A DNA stretch of 64,000 bases from Acidobacteriota bacterium (GCA_020845575.1 JADLFL010000002.1:25309-89308), one strand, 5' to 3'; shown: positions 10,617-22,368, counted from the first letter of the stretch. A program made the numbers and translations. The notes: generated by a model from the sequence alone, not told the origin.

Positions 10617-13298
10617 CTATGGGGGCGTGGCGAGTTCCAGGCGCTGGCGTTTCAGGTAGAGGCCCTTGCGCGTGATGCCGAGGGCTGCGGCGACGGCGAC
10701 CTGGTTGTTGCCGTTGCGTTCCATCGCGCGAGTGATCGCTGCGCGTTCGATGTCGTCGTGAATCTGCTGTAGCGGACGATCGAGCCAGACGCTGCAGTAC
10801 GAACGGTCACCGTGCGTCGGCGGCAGCGTCGGCGTCGACGTGCGGACGTTGGGTGCGAGGTGCGTCACGTCCACCAGTTCATCGTCTTCGCTGAGGGCGA
10901 CGACGCGCTTCAGTTCGTTGGTGAGCTGCCGCACGTTGCCCGGCCATTCGTAAGCAGACAGGCACTCGAGTGCCTTGGGCGTGAGCTGGGGGATCGGCTT
11001 CCCCGCCTGTTTTGCATGCATCGTCAGGAAGTGGTTGACGAGCGTGGGGATCTCCTCGCGCCGCTCGCGGAGCGGCGGGATGGTGAGCGAGACGACGTTG
11101 AGGCGGTAGAAGAGGTCCTCGCGGAAACGACCGGCGCGAACGAGCTCCTCGAGGCGCGCGTTGGTGGCCGCCACGATGCGGACGTCGACGTGCTGGGGCC
11201 GTTCGCCGAGCGGCTGGATCTCGCCACTTTCGAGGAAGCGCAGCAGCTTGGGCTGCAGGTCGGCGTCGAGCTCGCCGATCTCGTCGATGAACAGCGTGCC
11301 GCCCTCGGCCTCGCGGATCAGCCCCTTGTTGTCGGCGACGGCGCCAGTGAACGCGCCCCGCCGGTAGCCAAAGAGCTGCCCCTCCAGCATGTCGCGCGGC
11401 ACGGCCGACACGTTGAACGCGATGAACCGCCGCTGCGACCGCTTCGAAAGCTCATGAACCTCCTGCGCGACGATCTCCTTCCCCGTCCCCGTCTCACCTG
11501 CGATGAGCACGGGCAGATCAGTTGGAGCGACGCGCTTGATCGTTGAAAGTAGTTTCCTCATCTCTGTCGAGATGTAGAGACCCACCTTGCCCTCTGGAGC
11601 GACATCAAGCTCCCAGGAAAGCACACGCTTCTTGGACTCCTGCCCAGATCGCAGGGCCGCGATCGCTGTTCCGATCATGCCGAAGACTTGTGCAATAGTT
11701 TCGCGCGAGGTGGGATCGAGCTTGGGCTGCAGCTCTAACGTGACGGTCTCGTCTCCGACGGCGCCAAACGCAATTGCATAAGGAGAATCCGGCGACAGTG
11801 TTCGCGACTGGATTACGCGTCCGTCAACGATCACCTTCATTCTTCGAAGCAAGTGGATGGTCTCAGATGCGGCGAGCGCTGGCTGCGGAAGAAGCGCGCA
11901 CACGTATGCCAATGATTCGGCGAGTTCGAAATGCAGTCTGTGCCTTCTGGTAGATGGCAGCCCCAACGGCGGCCAGTGGTTGGCGGGCACGGAAGCCCTG
12001 ATTCTCGCTGTCTGCTTTGCGCTACATCGATCGCCGGACGCGAGGAAAATCCGAATAGCCCTTCCGTGCTCACTGTACCAGCGCTTTCGATCCCCTCGAT
12101 CAGCCGCCAATACCGCACGTACGCGAGCCAGCAGACCGACAATTTCGGCACTGGGGTGTTGCAGGCGCTCAACGACATCCACAACGTCGAGGTCGGCGCG
12201 TGCGCTGTTTCCTGTCGCACAAAGCACTTCCGCACAAAGCAGCCTGAGTTTGGCCCAGTTTGCTAGATCACCGCGGTCATCTGCTGCCTGTTGTGCGGCA
12301 GTCAGCAGCTCAATCGCACCCTGCATGTTTCCGGATGCAACGGCAAATCTGCTACGAACCGAGGCCGAGTCAACCAGAAGGATGGTAGTCCCGCTGAGCT
12401 CAGAGACAATCGCGTCGATCTCTCGGACGTGTGGCTCTGCCTCCTGGATACCTCCCGTCTCCAGCGCGACGTTGGCGAGCGTATCAAGGAGCGCTCCACG
12501 CGCTAGCGATACTCTCGGAACAGCATCTAGTGCAGTCGAAGCCAGTGTTCTAGCTTTGTCGAAGTGGCCGCGACGACACTCAAGAAACGCTAGATTGGCT
12601 TGTGCAGCAGCTTGAAGAGATTGAAGCCCATGTACTGAAGCCGTCTCATAAGCGGTGCGAGCCCAACGAGCGGCGTCTACGTTCCGCGCGAGCAGATACT
12701 CTGCACCAGAAAGCGCTAAGCAAACGAACGTCTCGATGGCGCCGTTTGGCTCTGGTTCCAGCAGGGCCAGTGCGGAGAGCAGTTCAGGAACAGCGACGCC
12801 CGGAAGGCTTCGCTGCGCATGAGCCTGCCCAACGCGAGCATGCAGCGACGCCATCAGTTGGCGGTCTCCGCACTTCAGTACGGCGCGTTTGGCTGTTTCG
12901 AAGGCCTGCTGGCTCTCAGCGAGTCCGCGGTGGCTCGTTAGCAGTGTAAAACGCGAGAGCGCCGCGAGAGCAACCTGCTCGTGCTCCTGTGCAGCCTCTC
13001 CTTCCACCAGCACTCGCCCCAGCGTATCGAGTGCGTCTGCTACGCGACCAGATGAGCCGAACAGTTCACCCTTGACGCGCAGAGCAAACACTCGCAACGC
13101 TGCGTCAGGCGAGTCAACGGCATAGGTCCCGAGCTGTGCAGAAGCGGCTGACACAGCGCCAGCCTGTCGCAACAACTCAGCCTCGATGACGTCGCGTGTC
13201 GCATCAGGAAGAGATGCGGCATGCAACATGCGTCGACTACTAGAGGCGTTACCAGAACGGAGGGCACGCCGGAGGGCGGCTGGCAGGTTCAGGGGCAT
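10617..13298 (-). CDS. Sigma54-dependent enhancer-binding protein with a large TPR-like helical N-terminal sensor
   Basis: GETGTGKE (Walker A), [20 protein letters not shown] (Walker B), [20 protein letters not shown]-terminal Fis-type HTH; no REC domain; helical repeats such as [28 protein letters not shown]. Alternative start ATG 13229. Confidence 0.9.
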
Positions 13299-13303
13299 TC
13301 GGT

Positions 13304-13330
13304 GAAGTGCCGCAGAGTGTACAGCACTTC
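13304..13330. promoter_or_regulatory. Inverted repeat between the protease and the activator gene (hairpin or operator)
   Basis: GAAGTGC-13 nt-GCACTTC. Confidence 0.35.
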
Positions 13331-13361
13331 CTCGACCGCCCCTGATTCGACATTTATGATC

Positions 13362-14999
13362 TCAGTCGCCCCACACCAAGGTATCGCCCCACACGAGCGT
13401 GTCACCCCATACCAGGGTGTCGCCCCACACGAGCGTGTCACCCCACACCAAGGTATCCCCCCACACGAGCGTGTCACCCCACACCAAGGTATCGCCCCAG
13501 ACGAGCGTGTCGCCCCACACCAAGGTGTCCCCCCACACGAGCGTGTCACCCCATACCAGGGTGTCGCCCCACACGAGCGTGTTCGCGCCGGCTTTCGCGG
13601 CGAAGGTCAGACCACTGCGCTCGATTGTCTCGCCGGCGATGTTTGTCGTTGGCAAATTCTGCAACCCGCGTCGGGAAGCCGACACAGCAGAGACGACGTT
13701 GATAGCGCCGGCGCCGGCGGCGGCGACGCCGGATTCGGCGACGCGCTGCGAGGTGAGCTGGAGCACTGCCTTCACCTGGTGCGGCTTGAGCGACGGGTTG
13801 GCCTGGAGCACCAGCGCCGCGGCACCTGACACCATCGCCGCCGCCATGCTCGTGCCCGACAACCGCAGGTAGAAGCGCTGGCCGGACCCGGTCGAAACCG
13901 CGCCGTCCTTCTGCGCGAGCGTGCTCTGCGCGGCACCCGCCGACACTATGCGGCGGCCCGGCGCCGCGAGGTCGGGCTTCATGAACCCGTCGATCGCCGT
14001 GAGGCCACGCGAACTCCAGTCGGTCACGCGGTCGTCACTGCGCGCCACGGTGCCCATCGTGTCGATCGCGCCCACGGTGATCGCCGACGGCGCGTTGCCC
14101 GGCGAGGTGATGCTGTCGCGCACGCGTGTGCCATCGGGCAGCGTGCCGAGGTTGCCCGCCGACGCCACCACCACGAGCCCCGCGCGACTCGCACGCTCCA
14201 CCGCCTGCACGAGCGGATCGTCGGCCCAGCTCTCCAGCACCGGCTTGCCGAGCGACAGGTTGACCACGCGCAGCTTGTACGCGCGACGGTTCGCGATGGC
14301 CCAGTCGATCGCCGCGATCACGTCGCTCGTCGTGCCGTGTCCCTTCGCGTCGAGCACACGCAGGTTCACCACGTGCGCGCCTGGCGCCACACCGCTGAAG
14401 CGACCCGCACGCGTCGTCACGTTACCCGCCGCGATGCCCGCCACGTGCGTACCGTGGCCGTAGCCGTCGTTCCCGCGCTCACGCACGGAGACGAAATCCA
14501 CGGCCGCCACTACGCGGCCGCGCAGCGATTCGTGCGTCGACGCAATCCCCGAATCGATGATCGCGATGCCAATGCCCGTCCCGTCCACACCCGGCAGGCC
14601 GAAGGCCCCGCGCCACGCCTGGTCGGCACCGAGCGCCTGCACCTCGGTCGCCATGTGCGCTGCCACCGGCGCGTCCTCGGCCACCGCTGGCACGCCCGGG
14701 TCGCTCGCCAGGCGCGACAGGCCGGCCCTGTCCACTCTCAGGACGGCCCCCGTCTCCAGCACCTTCTCGACCACCAGACCATGCCGCGCCGCAAGGTCGC
14801 GGATCTGCGCCGGCGTCCCGGAGACGATCACCCCGCGTGCGGCACCGGCACCCACCTTGTCCACCAGCCCCCTCGACAGGCGCGCGCGATGGCCCTGAGC
14901 ATGCAGAGGCGACGACAGCACCAGCATCAGAAAGGCGATGGACACCCAGACGACGGTGCGCTGGATGGGCGAAGGGAGGGTCGAACGGAGGGAGAACAT
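13362..14999 (-). CDS. Secreted S8 (subtilisin, AprX-like) serine peptidase with a C-terminal (TLVWGD)12 tail
   Basis: Signal peptide ending SSPLHA, prodomain, intact triad IAIIDSG / GHGTHVAG / SGTSMAA, oxyanion SAGN; start refined to ATG 14999. Confidence 0.93.
   Translation of the reverse strand: MFSLRSTLPSPIQRTVVWVSIAFLMLVLSSPLHAQGHRARLSRGLVDKVGAGAARGVIVSGTPAQIRDLAARHGLVVEKVLETGAVLRVDRAGLSRLASDPGVPAVAEDAPVAAHMATEVQALGADQAWRGAFGLPGVDGTGIGIAIIDSGIASTHESLRGRVVAAVDFVSVRERGNDGYGHGTHVAGIAAGNVTTRAGRFSGVAPGAHVVNLRVLDAKGHGTTSDVIAAIDWAIANRRAYKLRVVNLSLGKPVLESWADDPLVQAVERASRAGLVVVASAGNLGTLPDGTRVRDSITSPGNAPSAITVGAIDTMGTVARSDDRVTDWSSRGLTAIDGFMKPDLAAPGRRIVSAGAAQSTLAQKDGAVSTGSGQRFYLRLSGTSMAAAMVSGAAALVLQANPSLKPHQVKAVLQLTSQRVAESGVAAAGAGAINVVSAVSASRRGLQNLPTTNIAGETIERSGLTFAAKAGANTLVWGDTLVWGDTLVWGDTLVWGDTLVWGDTLVWGDTLVWGDTLVWGDTLVWGDTLVWGDTLVWGDTLVWGD
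13365..13580 (-). repeat. 12 x 18-nt coding tandem repeat (TLVWGD)
   Basis: 12 units counted in the DNA; all unit differences are synonymous; ends directly at the TGA stop. Confidence 0.97.
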
Positions 15000-15082
15000 C
15001 GTGCAGGCTCCAGGTACAAGGGGAACGCGTTTCGGAGCTCGCCAAAATTGCCATGTGACGATGCGCCGACGTCTGGAGCAAT

Positions 15083-15097
15083 ACATGCGTCGTGCCA
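15083..15097 (-). promoter_or_regulatory. Candidate sigma54 (-24/-12) promoter for the S8 protease
   Basis: Minus strand TGGCACGACGCATGT: exact TGGCACG -24 box with correct spacing, but -12 box is ATGT instead of TTGC. Confidence 0.4.
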
Positions 15098-15263
15098 TGT
15101 GTGCAGAAATTGCGATCTCGGACACGAGATGCATGAGACGAATGCACCCCTGAAGCGGCGGACTCGTTGTGCCGACACAGGATCAGGGCCCGTCTCGACA
15201 ATTGGAAGTCAACCTCATCATTTGCTTGGAATCACTGTCGAGGCAGATTTTCCGCCCGTTGAT

Positions 15264-15281
15264 CGGCCAAGATCTTGGCCG
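15264..15281. promoter_or_regulatory. Perfect 18-bp palindrome in the divergent protease/ABC intergenic region
   Basis: CGGCCAAGATCTTGGCCG; a second dyad ATCTCG-GACA-CGAGAT lies at 15115-15130. Confidence 0.55.
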
Positions 15282-15307
15282 GTGTAGCCAAGGAGTTGCC
15301 CTCTCCC

Positions 15308-17002
15308 ATGAAGCGTCTTGCCGGCGTCCTCCTGCTTCTCGCCCTCATCGTCGCCGGCCTCGTGTGGCTGCGTACCGCTCCCGCGCGGCAGGCCGACACG
15401 ACGTTCGAACTCGTGGCCACACTCCGCGCCGAACCGCGTACGCTCAACAGGCTGCTCGCCGCCGACCGCGCCGCCCTCGTCGTCAGCCAACTCATCCACG
15501 AGCCGCTGGTCCGCGTGAATCACACGACGCAGGATCTGGAACCCGCCCTGGCCTCGGCATGGACCCTGTCCGACGATGGCCGGCGATTCACGGTGACGCT
15601 GCGACCAGATGCGCACTTCTCCGACGGCTCGCCCGTCACGGCAGGCGATGTGGTGTTCTCGGTGGAGACCGCTGCCGACACGCGCATCGGCAGCGTCGTG
15701 GCCGACAACCTCCTCGTGGATGGTGCTCCTGTGGTGGTGCGGGCGATCGACGCGCACACCGTCGCGATCGAGTACCCCACGCCGTTCGGGCCGGGACTCC
15801 GCCCCCTTCACGGCGTACCGATCCTGCCGCGCGCGCGCTATGAGGGGTTGGTCAGCGACGGCTCTCTCTCGAACGCGTGGACGGCAGACGCCCCGCCGGC
15901 GGGGATGGTGAGCGCCGGGCCGTTCGTCCTCGAACGCCACGAGCCAGGCGTGGCCCTCCACCTCGCACGCAATCCGCACTACTGGCGTCGCGCCGGCGAT
16001 GGCGCGCGGCTGCCGCGCGCCGCACGTCTCCGCTTCGACATCGTCCCGTCGCAGGATGCGGAGATGCTGCGTCTGCGCGACGGCCAGGCGGATGTCGTCA
16101 CCGCCGAGTTGCGCCCCGACGATCTGCCTGAAGCACGCGCGCTCGCCGCACAGGGCCGGCTGCAACTCTTCGAGCTCGGCCCTTCGCTCGACACCGACAT
16201 GCTCTGGTTCAACCTCGGGCCGCACGCACCTGGTGGCGAGAAGCGCGCGTGGCTGAAGGCCCGGGCGCTGCGAGAGGCGATTTCGCATGCCGTCGATCGC
16301 ACGGCGTTCATCAACGCGGTCTACAGGGGCGCAGCGGTGCAGGTGTCGAGCATGATCACGCCCGGCAATCGCGCCTGGCACGCAGATACGCTCGCGCCGC
16401 GACCGTATTCGCTCGACATGGCGGCCACGCTGCTGGACTCGATCGGCGTCCGCGATCGCAACGGCGACGGCATGCGCGAAGACGTCTACAACGCACCGGC
16501 GCGCTTCACGCTGCTCGTGCAGCAGGGCCACACGATTCGCCAGCGTGCTGCACTGGTCCTCCAGGAGTCGCTCTCGAAGGTCGGCCTGCAGGTGGAGATC
16601 GCCAGCCTCGACGCACGCGGATTGCAGGAGCGCCTGCGGCAGGGTACGTACGAGGCGATGTACCACGGCCTGCCCGGATCGGACACGGACCCGTCGGGCC
16701 TGATGGAGTTCTGGCTGTCGTCGGGCGCGTTCCATCTCTGGAATCCCGGACAAGCCACTCCGGCCACGCCGTGGGAGGCCGAGATCGATCGCCTGATGAC
16801 GAGTCAGCTTTCAATTACCGATGTGAACGAGCGCCGTGCACTGGTCCTGCAGGCGCAGCAGGTGCTCGACACGGAGCTGCCGGTAATAGTGTTCGCCGCG
16901 CCGAACGTGACGGTGGCCACGAGCGGACGACTGGAGCACGTGTCGCCAGGGCTGCTGTCGCCGACCGTGCTCTGGAACGCCGCCGCGATCGGCGTGCGGT
17001 GA
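15308..17002 (+). CDS. ABC transporter substrate-binding protein, family 5 (oligopeptide/dipeptide/nickel)
   Basis: EPRTLNRL, LIHEPLV, LRPDAHFSDGSPVTAGDVVFS, SAGPFVL, LARNPHYW, LREAISHAVDR; start refined to ATG 15308. Confidence 0.9.
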   Translation: MKRLAGVLLLLALIVAGLVWLRTAPARQADTTFELVATLRAEPRTLNRLLAADRAALVVSQLIHEPLVRVNHTTQDLEPALASAWTLSDDGRRFTVTLRPDAHFSDGSPVTAGDVVFSVETAADTRIGSVVADNLLVDGAPVVVRAIDAHTVAIEYPTPFGPGLRPLHGVPILPRARYEGLVSDGSLSNAWTADAPPAGMVSAGPFVLERHEPGVALHLARNPHYWRRAGDGARLPRAARLRFDIVPSQDAEMLRLRDGQADVVTAELRPDDLPEARALAAQGRLQLFELGPSLDTDMLWFNLGPHAPGGEKRAWLKARALREAISHAVDRTAFINAVYRGAAVQVSSMITPGNRAWHADTLAPRPYSLDMAATLLDSIGVRDRNGDGMREDVYNAPARFTLLVQQGHTIRQRAALVLQESLSKVGLQVEIASLDARGLQERLRQGTYEAMYHGLPGSDTDPSGLMEFWLSSGAFHLWNPGQATPATPWEAEIDRLMTSQLSITDVNERRALVLQAQQVLDTELPVIVFAAPNVTVATSGRLEHVSPGLLSPTVLWNAAAIGVR

Positions 17003-17006
17003 CCTG

Positions 17007-17885
17007 ATGCGCCGCGCGATCGCCGGACGACTCGCCTTCGCGCTCGCGCTCGTGGCGCTCGCGTTCGTGGGTGCGTTCGTGCTCACGGCGCTGGCGCCAG
17101 GCGATGCGATCGACGTCGGGCTGCGATCGACGCAATCTGTCGATGCCGAGCGCGTCCGCCTCGGACTCGACAGGCCCGTCCTCACGCGACTCGCGACGCG
17201 GATCGCGCGGCTGGCTGTGCTCGACTTCGGCCGATCCATCCGCTACGACCAGCCCGTGCTCACGCTCGTCCTCCAGCGGACCGCCACGACGATGCAGACG
17301 GGGGCGGTGGCGCTGGTGCTGGCACTCGTGATCGGGATTCCCGCGGGTGTGGCCAGCAGTCGCGCACGACGGCCCGCCGTGCGTCGTGCGATCGCGGCGA
17401 TCTCGATCGCGCTGCTCTCCATCCCTGCGCTCGTCGTCGCGCTCGTGCTCGCCGTCGTGGCGTCGAGCATCGGACTCACGTCGTGGATGGTGATGACGAT
17501 CGCGCTGGCGCTGCCGGCGGCGGCACTCATCGAACGCCTGCAGTCGCGCGCGATGGATGCCGTGCAGGTCGAGACATGCCTGCGCGCCGCACGCGCACGC
17601 GGCGTGCGGGAAGCGGCCATCACGTGGCGGCACGCGTGGCCGCTGTCGCTGTCTGCCGTGCTCGGCGTGACGGGCATCATCGCCGGACACCTGTTGAGTG
17701 GAGCGCTCGCGATCGAGCTGGTCACGGCCAGAAGCGGACTCGGCCTGCTGACGTACGAAGCGCTGATGGCGCGCGATGTGGAGCTCGCGGCCGGTTGCGC
17801 CGCGGCCGCTGCGCTCATCGTCGGACTCGCGACGCTCGCGGCCGACGTCGTGCAGCTCTGGGTCGACCCGCGGAGCGCCGCGTGA
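17007..17885 (+). CDS. ABC peptide transporter permease, DppB/OppB-like
   Basis: LAPGDA, RLGLDRP, DFGRSIRY, EAA-like loop ARARGV. Confidence 0.85.
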   Translation: MRRAIAGRLAFALALVALAFVGAFVLTALAPGDAIDVGLRSTQSVDAERVRLGLDRPVLTRLATRIARLAVLDFGRSIRYDQPVLTLVLQRTATTMQTGAVALVLALVIGIPAGVASSRARRPAVRRAIAAISIALLSIPALVVALVLAVVASSIGLTSWMVMTIALALPAAALIERLQSRAMDAVQVETCLRAARARGVREAAITWRHAWPLSLSAVLGVTGIIAGHLLSGALAIELVTARSGLGLLTYEALMARDVELAAGCAAAAALIVGLATLAADVVQLWVDPRSAA

Positions 17886-18880
17886 TCACCGTGCGGCGAT
17901 GCGGCGTCGCGCTGCTCGCGATCGTGTGCACGTGTGCGCTAGCGGCGCCGTGGCTGTCGACGGGCGATGTCGCGACTCAGTATCCCGACTACGCCCTCGC
18001 GGGGCCGTCGCTCGCGCGGCGCGACATGGTCGAGCGCCTGCCGCCCACGTATCGCGCGCGCGACGAGCGCCTGCCGCTGGAGTGGTTCGCCGGACATCTC
18101 GTGCGCAGCGCCGATCCGCACGAACCGTTGCTGCCGCTCGGCAGCGACACGCTCGGGCGCGATCAATGGACGCGCCTGCTCTATGGCGCGCGGTTGTCGC
18201 TGGGACTGGCGGGCGTGGCGCTCGTCGCCTCCGTCGCGATCGGCACGCTGGTGGGGCTCGTCGCTGGACGACGAGCCGGATGGACCGACAGCGCGCTGAT
18301 GCGCCTCGCGGACCTGTTCATCGCGTGGCCGGCGCTGTACGTCGTGCTCGTGCTGCGCGCGGCGCTGCCACTCACGCTGCCGTTCGGCACGCTGTTCCTC
18401 ATGATGGCCGCGGTGCTCACGCTCGCGGGCTGGGCGATCGTCGCGCGCGCGGTGCGCGCGGTGACCGCATCGGAGCGCAGCCGCGAGTCGGTACTGGCCG
18501 CGGAAGCCGCCGGCGCGTCGCCCGCCTGGATCATCAGGCGTCACCTGTTGCCGGCGAGCGTGCCCGTGATCGTGACGCAGGCGCTGCTGCTGGTGCCGAC
18601 GTTCATCCTCGCCGAAGCCACGCTCTCGTTCGTCGGCCTCGGCTTCGCGGAACCGGCACCGTCATGGGGCACGATGCTGCGCGAGGCCAGCAATCCGTTC
18701 ACGCTGCGCCACGCGCCATGGCTGCTCGCACCGGCCGGTGCGATCGCGCTCGTGACGCTGGCGGTGAATCTCATCTCCGGCAACCGGCAACGGGCAACCG
18801 GCAACCGGACATCGAACGGGTTGCCCCCCGTTCGCTCCGTCTCGGGTTCGGATACACGACCATCTGGTTTCCGTCGCTAG
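17882..18880 (+). CDS. ABC peptide transporter permease, DppC/OppC-like
   Basis: LGSDTLGRDQWTRLLYGARLSL, AAEAAGAS, ILAEATLSFVGLG, PSWGTML; GTG 17882 overlaps the upstream stop. Confidence 0.87.
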   Translation: MITVRRCGVALLAIVCTCALAAPWLSTGDVATQYPDYALAGPSLARRDMVERLPPTYRARDERLPLEWFAGHLVRSADPHEPLLPLGSDTLGRDQWTRLLYGARLSLGLAGVALVASVAIGTLVGLVAGRRAGWTDSALMRLADLFIAWPALYVVLVLRAALPLTLPFGTLFLMMAAVLTLAGWAIVARAVRAVTASERSRESVLAAEAAGASPAWIIRRHLLPASVPVIVTQALLLVPTFILAEATLSFVGLGFAEPAPSWGTMLREASNPFTLRHAPWLLAPAGAIALVTLAVNLISGNRQRATGNRTSNGLPPVRSVSGSDTRPSGFRR

Positions 18881-18901
18881 AATGTGGCTCGGAGGAATCT
18901 G

Positions 18902-19811: not shown

Positions 19812-20990
19812 ATGGCCATCGATCGCTACCTGAAGGCGGAGATCGTCTCGACGCTGGCTCAACGCATGGCGTTCATCGGTGGGCCGAGACAGATCGGCAA
19901 GACGACGCTCGCGTTGTCGCTCATCGGCCCTGATGCAACAGAACGCCATCCGGCCTACCTGAACTGGGACGATCCCAAGGTTCCGCCGGCGGTGCGCCGC
20001 GGGCAACTGCCGCCGGACGAGCCGCTCGTGGTGCTCGACGAGATCCACAAGTACGCGCGGTGGAGAAACCTGGTCAAGGGACTCTACGACACGGAGAAGA
20101 GCGTCCGCCAGTTCATCGTCACCGGCTCTGCGCGCCTCGATCACTACCGGAAGGGTGGCGACTCGCTCGCGGGCCGGTATCGCTACTTTCGGCTGCATCC
20201 GTTCTCGGTCAACGAGATCGCGGCGGCCACCGGAGCCCCTGCAGGCGAGCATGTGGATGCGCTGCTCGCATTCGGCGGATTCCCGGAGCCGCTGCTCGCT
20301 CAGAACGCGCGGGCGCTGCGGCGCTGGCAACGGGAGCGTCTCACGCGAGTGGTACGCGAGGACCTGCGTGACCTGGAGCGCGTTCGGGACGTCTCGCTCG
20401 TCGAGCAGCTTGTCGACCTGTTGCCGGAACGTGTCGGCTCCCTGCTCTCGGTGCGGAGCCTGCGCGAGGATCTCGAGGTCGATCACAAGACCGCCGAGCA
20501 CTGGATCACGATCCTCGAGAACCTGTACGTCTGTTTCCGCGTTCCGCCATATGGCGATCCGGCGCGGCGCCGCAGTCCGGGCAGTCCGGCCACGCGCATC
20601 CGCGCGCTGAAGAAGCAGCAGAAGCTCTATCTGTGGGACTGGTCGGTCGTACCTGACGAGGGGGCGCGCTTCGAGAACCTCGTGGCCGCGCAGCTCCTCA
20701 AGTACTGCCACTGGCAGGAGGACGTCGAAGGCCATCGCATGGAGCTTCGCTTCCTCCGCGACGTCGACGGACGCGAAGTGGACTTCGTGGTCATTCAGGA
20801 CAAGCGCCCGATCTTCGCCGTCGAATGCAAGACTGGTGAGCGAGCAGCGAGCCCGGCCATCCGCTACTTCGCCGAGCGCACGTCGATCCCCGTCTTCTAT
20901 CAGGTACACCGTGGTACCCGGCACTTCCAGCAGGGCCACGCTACTGTCGTTCCCTTCGCCCGCTGGTGCATGGACATGCAGTTGCCGTGA
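19812..20990 (+). CDS. AAA_14 + DUF4143 ATP-binding protein
   Basis: GPRQIGKTT, VLDEIHK, VTGSA, LAGR, GGFPE, KLYLWD, FENLVA, REVDFV...AVECK. Confidence 0.88.
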   Translation: MAIDRYLKAEIVSTLAQRMAFIGGPRQIGKTTLALSLIGPDATERHPAYLNWDDPKVPPAVRRGQLPPDEPLVVLDEIHKYARWRNLVKGLYDTEKSVRQFIVTGSARLDHYRKGGDSLAGRYRYFRLHPFSVNEIAAATGAPAGEHVDALLAFGGFPEPLLAQNARALRRWQRERLTRVVREDLRDLERVRDVSLVEQLVDLLPERVGSLLSVRSLREDLEVDHKTAEHWITILENLYVCFRVPPYGDPARRRSPGSPATRIRALKKQQKLYLWDWSVVPDEGARFENLVAAQLLKYCHWQEDVEGHRMELRFLRDVDGREVDFVVIQDKRPIFAVECKTGERAASPAIRYFAERTSIPVFYQVHRGTRHFQQGHATVVPFARWCMDMQLP

Positions 20991-21046
20991 TCGGGGCATC
21001 CGGCCGCCCGTTGCCACGTTCCCGTCGTAAAGAGGACGACCCAGAG

Positions 21047-21100
21047 TTTCCTTGCACGGAGGGAAATATCTGGTCGATACTTTCCCTGTGCAGAGGGAAA
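21047..21100. promoter_or_regulatory. Two copies of a 20-bp dyad at the start of the second DUF4143 ATPase
   Basis: TTTCCTTGCACGGAGGGAAA (21047-21066) and TTTCCCTGTGCAGAGGGAAA (21081-21100); the second overlaps the GTG start. Confidence 0.6.
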
Positions 21101-22368
21101 CCCTGAAGTACATCCTGGCCGACGCCATGGCCAGGCCGTTGCCGGAGGTGGTGCCGAGAGCGCTGACGCTGCCGCTGGATTCGCGCAAGGTCGTGGCGCT
21201 GGTCGGCATCAGGCGGTGCGGCAAGACGTCGATCCTCTACGACACGATGCGCCGCCTCGAAGCGAGCGGCGTCGACAGGCGGCGGATGGTCTACCTGAAT
21301 TTCGAGGACGACCGCCTGCTGCCGATCGAGACGGCGGAGTTCGATCACGTGCTCCGCGCGCACGCGGAGCTCTACCCGGAGGTGGCCGGCCAGCCGCGGT
21401 ACTACTTCTTCGACGAGGTGCAGCGCGCGCCGCGCTGGGAGACGTTCGTGCGGCGGCTCGTGGACACCGAAGGTGCCCGCGTCTTCGTCACCGGCTCCTC
21501 GTCGGACCTGCTGGTGCGCGACGTGGCGACGAGCCTCCGCGGACGCAGCATCTCGTTCGAGGTCTTCCCGCTGTCGTTCCCGGAGTTCCTCGCGTTCAGG
21601 GGCATCGAGCACACGCGGTACTCGCGCGCGTCGGAAGGACGGATCGCCGCGGCGCTCGACGACTATCTCGACACCGGAGGGCTTCCCGAGATCGTCCTGG
21701 CCGACGAGGCCCTGCGTCCGCGCATCCTGCAGGAGTACGTGGACCTGGTCTTCTACAAGGACCTCGTCGATCGCTACCGCGTGGGCAACGGACCCGTGAT
21801 GCGGCAGTTGCTCAAGACCTGCCTGGGCCAGCCGGCCGCGCTCTTCAGCGCGCACAAGGTCTATCAGGACCTGCGCTCGCAGGGGTACCAGCTCTCGAAA
21901 GACACCGTGTACCAGTACCTCGGCTACCTGGAGGAGTCGTACGTCGTGTTCACGCTTGCCGTGGCGGAGAAGTCGATACGGAAGCAGGCGGCCAATCCCA
22001 AGAAGGTGCACCCGGTGGACTGGGCGCTGGGCTATCCGTTCGTCCCGGCTCGACGCATCGACGTGGGGCACAAACTCGAGACGGCGGTGTTCCTGCACTG
22101 GCGTCGCCAGCGTCGCGATCTCGCGTACCTCGCCGGCGCGCGCGAAGTCGATCTCGTCGTCGATCCCGACAGGCCCGAAGCCGCCCTCAACGTGGCGTAC
22201 TCGGTGACCGACGCCGACACATGGGACCGTGAGATGGCGAGCCTCGAAGCGGCCGCCACGCGGGTCCCGAAGGCCGAGCGCGTGCTCGTCGCCCACGAGA
22301 CCGGTTCGCGCAAGCCCCCGAAGGGCGTGAAGGTGCTCGACGCCTGGCGCTACCTGCTTGGCGCGTAG
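21088..22368 (+). CDS. Second AAA_14 + DUF4143 ATP-binding protein, divergent from the first
   Basis: GIRRCGKTS, YLNFEDDRL, FFDEVQ, VTGSSS, LRGRS, GGLPE, NPKKVHPVD, LETAVF, REVDLV; probable GTG start at 21088. Confidence 0.88.
   Translation: MQRETLKYILADAMARPLPEVVPRALTLPLDSRKVVALVGIRRCGKTSILYDTMRRLEASGVDRRRMVYLNFEDDRLLPIETAEFDHVLRAHAELYPEVAGQPRYYFFDEVQRAPRWETFVRRLVDTEGARVFVTGSSSDLLVRDVATSLRGRSISFEVFPLSFPEFLAFRGIEHTRYSRASEGRIAAALDDYLDTGGLPEIVLADEALRPRILQEYVDLVFYKDLVDRYRVGNGPVMRQLLKTCLGQPAALFSAHKVYQDLRSQGYQLSKDTVYQYLGYLEESYVVFTLAVAEKSIRKQAANPKKVHPVDWALGYPFVPARRIDVGHKLETAVFLHWRRQRRDLAYLAGAREVDLVVDPDRPEAALNVAYSVTDADTWDREMASLEAAATRVPKAERVLVAHETGSRKPPKGVKVLDAWRYLLGA

Follow-up and report, generated by a model that had tools for sequence, protein, structure and literature searches.

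The locus at positions 10617-18880 of a 64,000-nucleotide stretch of acidobacterial DNA (GCA_020845575.1, JADLFL010000002.1:25309-89308; the window, by which we mean the whole stretch analyzed) carries minus-strand genes for a secreted S8 protease and a sigma-54 activator and, divergently on the plus strand, genes for a family-5 substrate-binding protein (SBP) and two permeases of the ATP-binding cassette (ABC) type. These genes belong to a cassette that is a real, conserved, and undescribed unit, and from its gene content the window seems to hold a reduced member of this acidobacterial cassette. The regulatory nature of the cassette is well supported. An earlier note on this DNA had gone further and proposed a peptide-signaling circuit, in which the repeat tail of the protease would be cut into hexapeptides, imported, and sensed by the activator. 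The literature searched contained no description of the tail, the sensor family of the activator, the cassette, or a subtilase-linked sigma-54 enhancer-binding protein with a tetratricopeptide repeat-like sensor (TPR-EBP).

Orthologs of the protease, activator, and importer genes were found in the same order in Luteitalea pratensis (CP015136.1), on a long-read contig of a metagenome-assembled genome (MAG; L002), and in L100 (same genus), with the his operon and fucosidase genes as flanks, as in the window. Since gene order and flanks match these three relatives, the window is assigned to a Vicinamibacterales acidobacterium, a diderm. Conservation was scored by tblastn and Pfam over 80 S8 loci from one-per-species genomes and over further loci. 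Genes in related loci were called as longest open reading frames (ORFs) and verified by Pfam or tblastn, and SBP genes were called with the L010 SBP as query together with Pfam tables; some MAG contigs have frameshifts or breaks inside the repeat, and counts over related genomes are not independent. The S8 tree, a quick version with SH-aLRT support, placed the window protease within one clade (100% SH-aLRT). The recurring gene order is (M48/LysM)-class-V aminotransferase-DHDPS-like-permease-permease-SBP5 on the importer side and (HTH_17)-S8 with Trp tail-(mini-ORF)-MASE9/HD-GYP/GAF(-GGDEF)-TPR-EBP of 870-930 aa on the divergent side. Cassette synteny was identified in Luteitalea pratensis CP015136.1, L002, L004-L006, L008-L010, L027, L064, L088, L100, and L104, and additionally in 10 further genomes of the window's order; the cassette spans Vicinamibacterales, Solibacteraceae, and one Betaproteobacteria MAG. 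The window has the Trp-tail S8, the TPR-EBP, the divergent SBP5 importer, and a sigma-54 box, while it shares with Luteitalea, L002, and L100 the absence of both the mini-ORF and the MASE9/HD-GYP gene between protease and EBP.

Additionally, a profile of the activator's sensor matched 51 of 401 genomes of the phylum, 27 of these in the window's order. In 12 of the 17 full-coverage sensor matches (readable upstream DNA; 12 genera), a Trp-tail S8 gene lies directly upstream and an SBP5 gene is divergent, in most cases with an HD-GYP gene between S8 and EBP. The overall density of sigma-54 activators in these genomes is about one per 180 kb. The co-occurrence of tailed S8 proteases with TPR-EBP and SBP5 genes therefore held within the protease clade and for most sensors, but most tailed proteases are unlinked, standing alone or beside an HD-GYP gene only, and the protease-EBP link is specific to particular clades. 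The earlier note had allowed that the ABC genes might be adjacent by coincidence; instead, the divergent importer is the most conserved neighbor in the protease clade. It had also named the lack of linkage between homologous proteases and TPR-EBP or ABC genes as a finding that would speak against its proposal, and the result favored a functional module. As judged from these comparisons, the adjacency of the three parts is not due to chance and exceeds what descent alone would give.

The protease was assigned to the S8 peptidases by Pfam (PF00082, Peptidase_S8, E 3e-55), and the triad D149/H182/S384 and oxyanion residue N283 occupy invariant columns in 37 homologs, which agrees with the secreted enzyme with an intact triad described in the earlier note. 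Translation likely begins at ATG 14999, with a protein opening MFSLRS, and the Luteitalea ortholog begins identically at the same place. The triad, the oxyanion Asn, a propeptide, and a signal peptide, the marks of a pre-pro S8A subtilase, are all present, and an AlphaFold2 (AF2) model gave a confident propeptide and catalytic domain. The top solved-structure match was ProN-Tk-SP (PDB 3AFG). With the Tk-SP/AprX-type pre-pro-subtilases (3AFG, 9UES), the window protease shares the N-terminal propeptide, the subtilisin fold with D-H-S, and a C-terminal extension, and it is a member of this type; the extension of Tk-SP, however, is a beta-jelly-roll domain, whereas the window protease carries identical hexapeptides in a row, for which no fold is predicted. 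The protease is 79% identical to the Luteitalea pratensis ortholog, and catalytic domains are 77-79% identical among close relatives.

The 12 identical TLVWGD units reported earlier at the protease end are exact in translation. Their DNA alternates between two codon sets, giving a 36-nt period, and contains at least 8 independent synonymous codon variants and zero replacements (neutral probability ~1e-5), a pattern that points to purifying selection on the tail. The unit was also found in Luteitalea pratensis (16 copies), L002 (about 17), and L100 (3 copies, from an assembly whose array may be collapsed), and a fifth contig is broken inside the repeat, just upstream of the activator. At 77-79% catalytic-domain identity, the persistence of one 6-residue unit across relatives is unremarkable by itself, and selection is better evidenced by the purely synonymous variation inside the array. 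In the AF2 model, the tail had pLDDT ~31 and no secondary structure, including no strands; it had no Pfam match and corresponded to no catalogued repeat family. Neither a repeat-model match nor a confident solenoid prediction was obtained for a left-handed beta-helix (Hexapep) or beta-solenoid, and some homologous tails with a period of 7-8 residues matched the LbR_Ice_bind model barely over its cut-off. A conserved IAGE...G.AF linker precedes the tail. Related S8 proteins from further clades and phyla have different short tandem units at their ends, namely GVLVGD, GILMSD, GVAIGD, GYLWTG, GNLWAD, GYSWSE, RASWS, TSSWS, and VNWGS (loci L022, L028, L036, L043, L046, L048, L053, L055, L057, L061, L070, L074, L077-L079, L081, and L084), and a short-repeat tail thus seems, from these sequences, to be a general trait of this subtilase family beyond the Trp-Gly form.

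The gene downstream of and co-oriented with the protease encodes, as the earlier note had it, a sigma-54 activator without a receiver domain (none was detected by Pfam). It contains Sigma54_activat (PF00158, E 4e-63), AAA_lid_14 (PF25601), and HTH_8 (PF02954) domains and a GAFTGA motif, and with its AAA+ domain, GAFTGA loop, and C-terminal HTH it is a bona fide bacterial enhancer-binding protein (EBP) with an uncharacterized input domain. Foldseek matched the EBP best to the AAA+ domains of NtrX, NtrC1, FlrC, and FleQ, with a target-normalized TM-score of 0.8 for the last three; among the top 50 matches of the full model, only AAA+ domains appeared and none corresponded to the N-terminal solenoid. 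The long TPR-like sensor read from the sequence earlier was recovered in the AF2 model as ~24 paired helices in residues 1-436 (pLDDT 80-95; model built from a 12-sequence alignment), followed by a small alpha/beta module. The Pfam TPR_12 match in the N-terminal 560 residues of the EBP was sub-threshold only, and comparison of the sensor sequence with the PDB revealed no relative. A profile search of 1.84 billion representatives placed the sensor in a family of 322 clusters (E<=1e-30), the full-length members of which have 860-960 aa. EBPs with ligand-binding N-termini (NorR, FhlA, DmpR/XylR, TyrR, FleQ) have the AAA+/GAFTGA domain, the lid, and the Fis-type HTH in common with the window protein, which also resembles them in the lack of a receiver, in an N-terminal domain presumed to gate the ATPase, and probably in a -24/-12-type target promoter. 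Unlike these proteins, it has as its input a ~440-residue TPR-like solenoid with a small alpha/beta module, and we know of no characterized EBP with such an input.

The importer genes were confirmed as a divergent family-5 SBP gene and two permease genes by Pfam, consistent with the earlier reading. In Luteitalea, L002, L100, and most cassettes, a DHDPS-like gene comes after the permeases; the window lacks it. The Terriglobales versions of the cassette include one ABC ATPase gene. NCBIfam gave the DHDPS-like, aminotransferase, and SBP genes no pathway, and use of hydroxyproline or murein peptides was considered and dropped as unsupported. Beyond the importer, several cassettes (L006 and L009, 0-5 kb) carry genes for a monofunctional transglycosylase, an NlpC/P60 peptidase, and an M48/LysM peptidase, which hints at a possible link with cell-wall turnover.

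Four conserved islands were recognized by footprint alignment in the otherwise diverged region between the protease and SBP genes: the sigma-54 box, both ribosome-binding sites, a palindrome CAAGATCTTG near the SBP start, and a CTGATCNTGTGTCGGC block. The -24/-12-like box noted earlier before the protease has a perfect TGGCACG element that is conserved in three relatives, but it deviates at the -12 element, the sequence being TGGCACG-N4-(A/G)TG(T/A)ATT in the window and in L002, Luteitalea, and L100. In 11 loci of the clade, the canonical form TGGYAC-N7-GC was found on the protease-ward strand, ahead of the S8 gene or, where a small HTH gene comes first, ahead of that gene, and the ~6.3 kb of intergenic DNA first scanned contained 9 such boxes against ~0.4 expected (0.066/kb/strand). 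A single box, which is palindromic, points toward the importer. Overall, a sigma-54 box lies upstream of the protease in about 15 loci, while a scan of the Terriglobales versions found none. Given the box enrichment, the conserved box of the window's genus, and the presence of rpoN in the genome, the activator likely activates transcription of both the protease gene and its own gene from a sigma-54 promoter, with the CTGATCCTGTGTCGGC block as its candidate binding site. The intergenic region had been described as 308 bp long and rich in dyads; the length held, as did the perfect palindrome CGGCCAAGATCTTGGCCG, whose core CAAGATCTTG is invariant in three relatives, but the other dyads are weak. 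A scan of the spacer between protease and activator showed no intrinsic terminator. This spacer contains an inverted repeat at 13307-13327 that is kept in the window, L085, L002, L100, and partly L087, while the remaining spacer has diverged; operator, promoter element, and RNA hairpin are candidate roles for this repeat.

Sister loci differ from the window in what lies between protease and activator. Mini-ORFs of 7-10 codons were identified between the S8 stop and the HD-GYP start in at least 14 of them (~0.44 expected by chance), with the form M-x(1-5)-[IL]-I-[V/I/A]-W-[S/T/D/G](E/D)-stop and, in several, a Shine-Dalgarno sequence. They were seen in L004, L005, L008-L010, L104, L108, L110-L112, L114-L116, L119, and L121, where the MASE9/HD-GYP gene always comes next. 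The encoded peptide tracks the tail variant: LIIWGE accompanies xIIWGD or xLIWGD tails (in a single family, and so representing few independent events), IIVW(S/T/D) accompanies x(I/L)VWG tails, and MRIIVWTD accompanies an SIVWTD tail. The resemblance of the mini-genes to the tail unit suggests that the unit is recognized as a short linear motif and favors peptide recognition over a purely structural role; that the mini-gene is a leader peptide ahead of HD-GYP is another possibility. Both the mini-gene and the HD-GYP gene are absent from the window's genus and L117, and no short ORF with a tail-like ending was found on either strand of the window between 9000 and 20000. For MASE9, ligand binding within the membrane was predicted by those who defined the domain (bioRxiv 10.1101/2021.11.05.467447). 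In Terriglobales (L029, L039, L045, and L066), activators with a PAS-AAA+-HTH-PilZ architecture adjoin MASE9-HD-GYP-GAF-GGDEF enzymes, which suggests that cyclic di-GMP (c-di-GMP) may directly control the sigma-54 activator there.

The sensors are the fastest-changing parts of the cassette. Between the window and Luteitalea, identity is 78% for the S8 catalytic domain, 73% for the SBP, 67-75% for the permeases, and 76% for the AAA+ and HTH domains, compared with 59% for the solenoid and 52% for the alpha/beta module that follows it. Likewise, L009 and L010 are 92-94% identical in the S8, SBP, permease, and DHDPS-like proteins, 66% in the EBP sensor, and 71% in HD-GYP, and their tail units are one residue apart (TLIWDN and TMIWDN). 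Such fast change fits either diversifying signal perception or weak constraint. TLVWGD is constant over sensors down to 51-59% identity and other units go with sensors below 30%, a relation that is fully confounded by phylogeny. The G+C content, ~68% across the region, dips to ~63% at the protease and the activator's sensor region (window 12001-14000; flanks 0.68-0.70), and the parts low in G+C are also the fastest-evolving parts of the cassette.

These results can be joined in an explanation of four steps. The subtilase would be made as a pre-pro-enzyme and exported by the Sec pathway, as its sequence suggests. The protease and activator genes would form one sigma-54-dependent operon switched on by the activator, and hence positively autoregulated, because synteny and the -24/-12 box are conserved, the terminator is lacking, and rpoN is present; the facing importer would be part of the same functional unit. 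The tail unit would be kept as a discrete short peptide motif for recognition by the sensors of the cassette, because it varies only synonymously and the mini-genes of sister loci end in a tail-like motif. Finally, and more speculatively, after the loss of MASE9/HD-GYP and the mini-gene, the cytoplasmic TPR-like solenoid of the activator would be the remaining candidate reader, fed through the adjacent importer with tail-motif peptides or other peptides released by the protease. The first two steps, with the chain from activator through sigma-54 promoter to protease, are the best-supported part and probably correct. An imported peptide is a plausible ligand of the activator, if short of a probable one, and is favored because the sensor is a helical repeat, the importer is constant, and the mini-genes resemble the motif. 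That this peptide comes from the protease's own tail is possible but unlikely, because the hhWG core is near-universal, many tailed proteases lack the circuit, and the tail is found only attached to the protease. Taken together, the four steps are our best explanation, and a tentative one.

Several observations weigh against the signaling part of this explanation. The Opp/Dpp-type parts at the locus comprise the SBP and both permeases but neither of the two ATPases, and no ABC ATPase gene was found at the locus of the window or of Luteitalea; the SBP falls below every NCBIfam equivalog cut-off. The -12 element of the window box has TGT for TGC. A tail-only search for free-standing small Trp-repeat genes returned just fragments of S8 genes, and a tail found solely in fusion with S8 suits a precursor and an accessory domain equally. 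Across phyla, the hhWG core is almost universal, which makes it a poor basis for a private signal. Moreover, the Trp tail is borne by thousands of proteases, most without an EBP or ABC neighbor, and it therefore needs a role independent of the circuit. Among all 80 S8-tail loci, an EBP lies within 5 kb in 11 against 3.9 expected, a modest excess, and five of the 17 sensor-family EBPs have no adjacent S8 (four with no S8 nearby, one with the importer only). Sister lineages employ the membrane c-di-GMP enzyme and PilZ-type activators, Terriglobales having the same gene content in another order with a PAS-AAA+-HTH-PilZ activator, and the loss of the mini-ORF together with HD-GYP while the TPR-EBP was kept suggests that the motif is read by the membrane sensor rather than by the TPR solenoid.

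One of two main rivals, though a somewhat unlikely one, is a nutritional regulon, in which protein would be scavenged by the secreted protease and the peptide importer, both switched on by the sigma-54 activator. Its input would be nitrogen or amino-acid status or substrate-derived peptides, and the Trp-Gly tail would be an accessory for surface or membrane retention, for binding of substrate or polymer, or as a beta-solenoid stalk, with no signal involved. In line with this reading, the tail is always S8-fused and occurs on thousands of proteases, mostly without the cassette; the conserved linker, the tails that match the LbR_Ice_bind beta-roll model, and the GVLVGD-type tails of related S8 clades, which fit the left-handed beta-helix hexapeptide consensus, are also in its favor, as are the catabolic-looking neighbors of the importer (DHDPS-like, class-V aminotransferase, M48 peptidase). 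However, AF2 shows no fold for the tail, the 12 units remain identical while silent sites drift, and a purely structural repeat would not readily account for unit-like mini-ORFs. For a simple nutrient sensor, 440 residues that outpace all enzymes of the cassette would also be unusual.

Distinctly less likely is a circuit of c-di-GMP or a protein partner, in which the ancestral cassette acts through the membrane MASE9/HD-GYP(-GGDEF) enzyme and the solenoid binds a protein or nucleotide instead of a peptide; the window would then be a remnant whose activator is under a partner encoded elsewhere, with an importer linked only metabolically. HD-GYP is the most widespread neighbor of Trp-tail S8 genes (~25/80 loci, several clades), the Terriglobales EBPs bear a c-di-GMP-binding PilZ domain, the AAA+ domain resembles those of the c-di-GMP-responsive FleQ and VpsR in Foldseek, and the window's genome has HD-GYP/GAF paralogs at other places; proteins are common ligands of TPR domains. 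But Pfam detected no PilZ or other c-di-GMP motif in the window EBP, and the S8/EBP/importer trio and its sigma-54 box are intact in the window's genus after the loss of HD-GYP, and the trio is therefore under selection by itself. That the three parts are neighbors by descent only, with no functional coupling, is very improbable: close relatives share the whole region from his operon to fucosidase, and synteny within the genus accordingly proves little, but the gene set recurs with shuffled order in other orders and classes and also occurs in a Betaproteobacteria MAG, and the sensor family occurs mostly at this single type of locus.

The four-step explanation invites comparison with the RRNPP systems of Bacillota and phages, which include Rap/Phr, NprR/NprX, PlcR/PapR, Rgg/SHP, and AimR/AimP, and in which NprR controls nprA. 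The proposed likenesses are that short hydrophobic peptides have a secreted source and are taken up by an Opp-type system, that their cytoplasmic receptor is built of helical repeats and fused to a transcription output, and that a secreted protease is controlled; in addition, the mini-ORF peptides of sister loci (...IIVWS) resemble hydrophobic pheromones of the SHP and XIP types. In contrast, the window sensor has no sequence relation to the RRNPP receptors (no Pfam, NCBIfam, or PDB match), which again counts against a shared mechanism, and its output is a sigma-54 AAA+ ATPase rather than a plain HTH or a phosphatase. The window contains no small pro-peptide gene, the proposed source being a 12-copy tail fused to the protease, its host is a diderm Acidobacterium, and its circuit is hypothetical; the literature searched describes RRNPP for Gram-positives only. 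With receptor homology, output type, and pro-peptide gene all differing, the window system is not an RRNPP member. The RRNPP-like logic of the earlier note thus kept a predicted, generic TPR-like fold and the conserved importer beside it, but neither receptor homology nor a pro-peptide gene. An autoinduction loop of this kind built from unrelated parts, with self-cut hexapeptides, ABC import, binding to the TPR-EBP, and transcription of the protease and of the activator itself, is doubtful, and no less doubtful is its extension to sister lineages, in which the motif would also come from the mini-gene and its reader would be a MASE9 sensor within the membrane that sets c-di-GMP levels. Multi-copy precursors are known as yeast alpha-factor, the KEX2-processed repeat proteins of fungi (ustiloxin precursor), and the cyanobactin precursor PatE with PatA/PatG. 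These recall the window tail in their tandem identical cores, in copies kept while the DNA drifts, and in the association with a subtilisin-family protease, but the window repeats are fused to the protease and have neither spacers nor recognizable cleavage motifs, and their processing is hypothetical.

Acidobacteriota are among the most abundant soil bacteria, and to our knowledge almost nothing is known about their regulation of extracellular proteolysis or their peptide signaling. The cassette joins undescribed or poorly described parts, namely a repeat tail found on thousands of subtilases, sigma-54 activators with a TPR-like input found in hundreds of clusters, and a peptide-type importer, to which sister lineages add a mini-gene and a c-di-GMP sensor within the membrane. 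Were the tail motif the signal, this would be the first RRNPP-type peptide-receptor circuit outside Gram-positives and their phages and the first case of a signal fused to the protease that it controls. Under a more sober reading, the locus still provides a defined sigma-54 regulon and a question of its ligand. Luteitalea pratensis DSM 100886, which is cultured and has a complete genome, carries the same module with 16 TLVWGD units at around 7.17-7.19 Mb of CP015136.1.

Table 1. Features of the protease-activator-importer locus, in window positions.
Feature	Position	Strand	Remarks
Sigma-54 enhancer-binding protein (EBP)	10617-13298	-	893 aa
Fis-type HTH_8 DNA-binding domain	10641-10754	-	residues 849-886, Pfam
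AAA+ sigma-54 interaction domain and lid	10824-11570	-	residues 577-825
TPR-like helical solenoid sensor	11991-13298	-	residues 1-436, AF2
S8/activator spacer			63 bp; genes co-oriented, activator downstream
Inverted repeat GTGCTGTAsACTCTGCrGCAC	13307-13327	-	in the 63-bp spacer, directly 5' of the activator start
Pre-pro S8 subtilase gene	13362-14999	-	545 aa from ATG 14999; longer ORF to 15134
C-terminal tail, 12 x TLVWGD	13365-13580	-	last 72 residues, up to the stop codon
Sec signal peptide (predicted)	14898-14999	-	residues 1-34; cleavage predicted from sequence between LHA and QG
S8/SBP intergenic region	15000-15307		308 bp between divergent genes
Sigma-54-type box TGGCACG-N4-ATGTATT	15080-15097	-	TGGCACGACGCATGTA at 15082-15097; ~85 nt upstream of protease ATG
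Conserved block CTGATCCTGTGTCGGC	15171-15186	-	~75-90 nt upstream of the -24 box; footprint alignment (CTGATCNTGTGTCGGC block)
18-bp perfect palindrome CGGCCAAGATCTTGGCCG	15264-15281	.	26 bp before SBP start
Family-5 (Opp/Dpp/Nik-type) SBP	15308-17002	+	SBP_bac_5, E 6e-76
ABC permease 1	17007-17885	+	BPD_transp_1
ABC permease 2	17882-18880	+	BPD_transp_1; predicted start GTG 17882

Downstream of the importer, an Exo_endo_phos gene directly follows permease 2 in the window (18880-18884; compare L085 3080-4018). Two DUF4143/AAA_14 ATPase genes lie between this gene and the his operon (19812-22368) and are probably an insertion, as Luteitalea and L002 have nothing there. In the genome of L003 and L125 (one 3.36-Mb contig), the cassette is decaying: the S8 gene has insertion sequence elements on either side and a tail that is irregular and degenerate, its locus lacks the EBP, a sensor fragment is located elsewhere, and the SBP gene is broken up.

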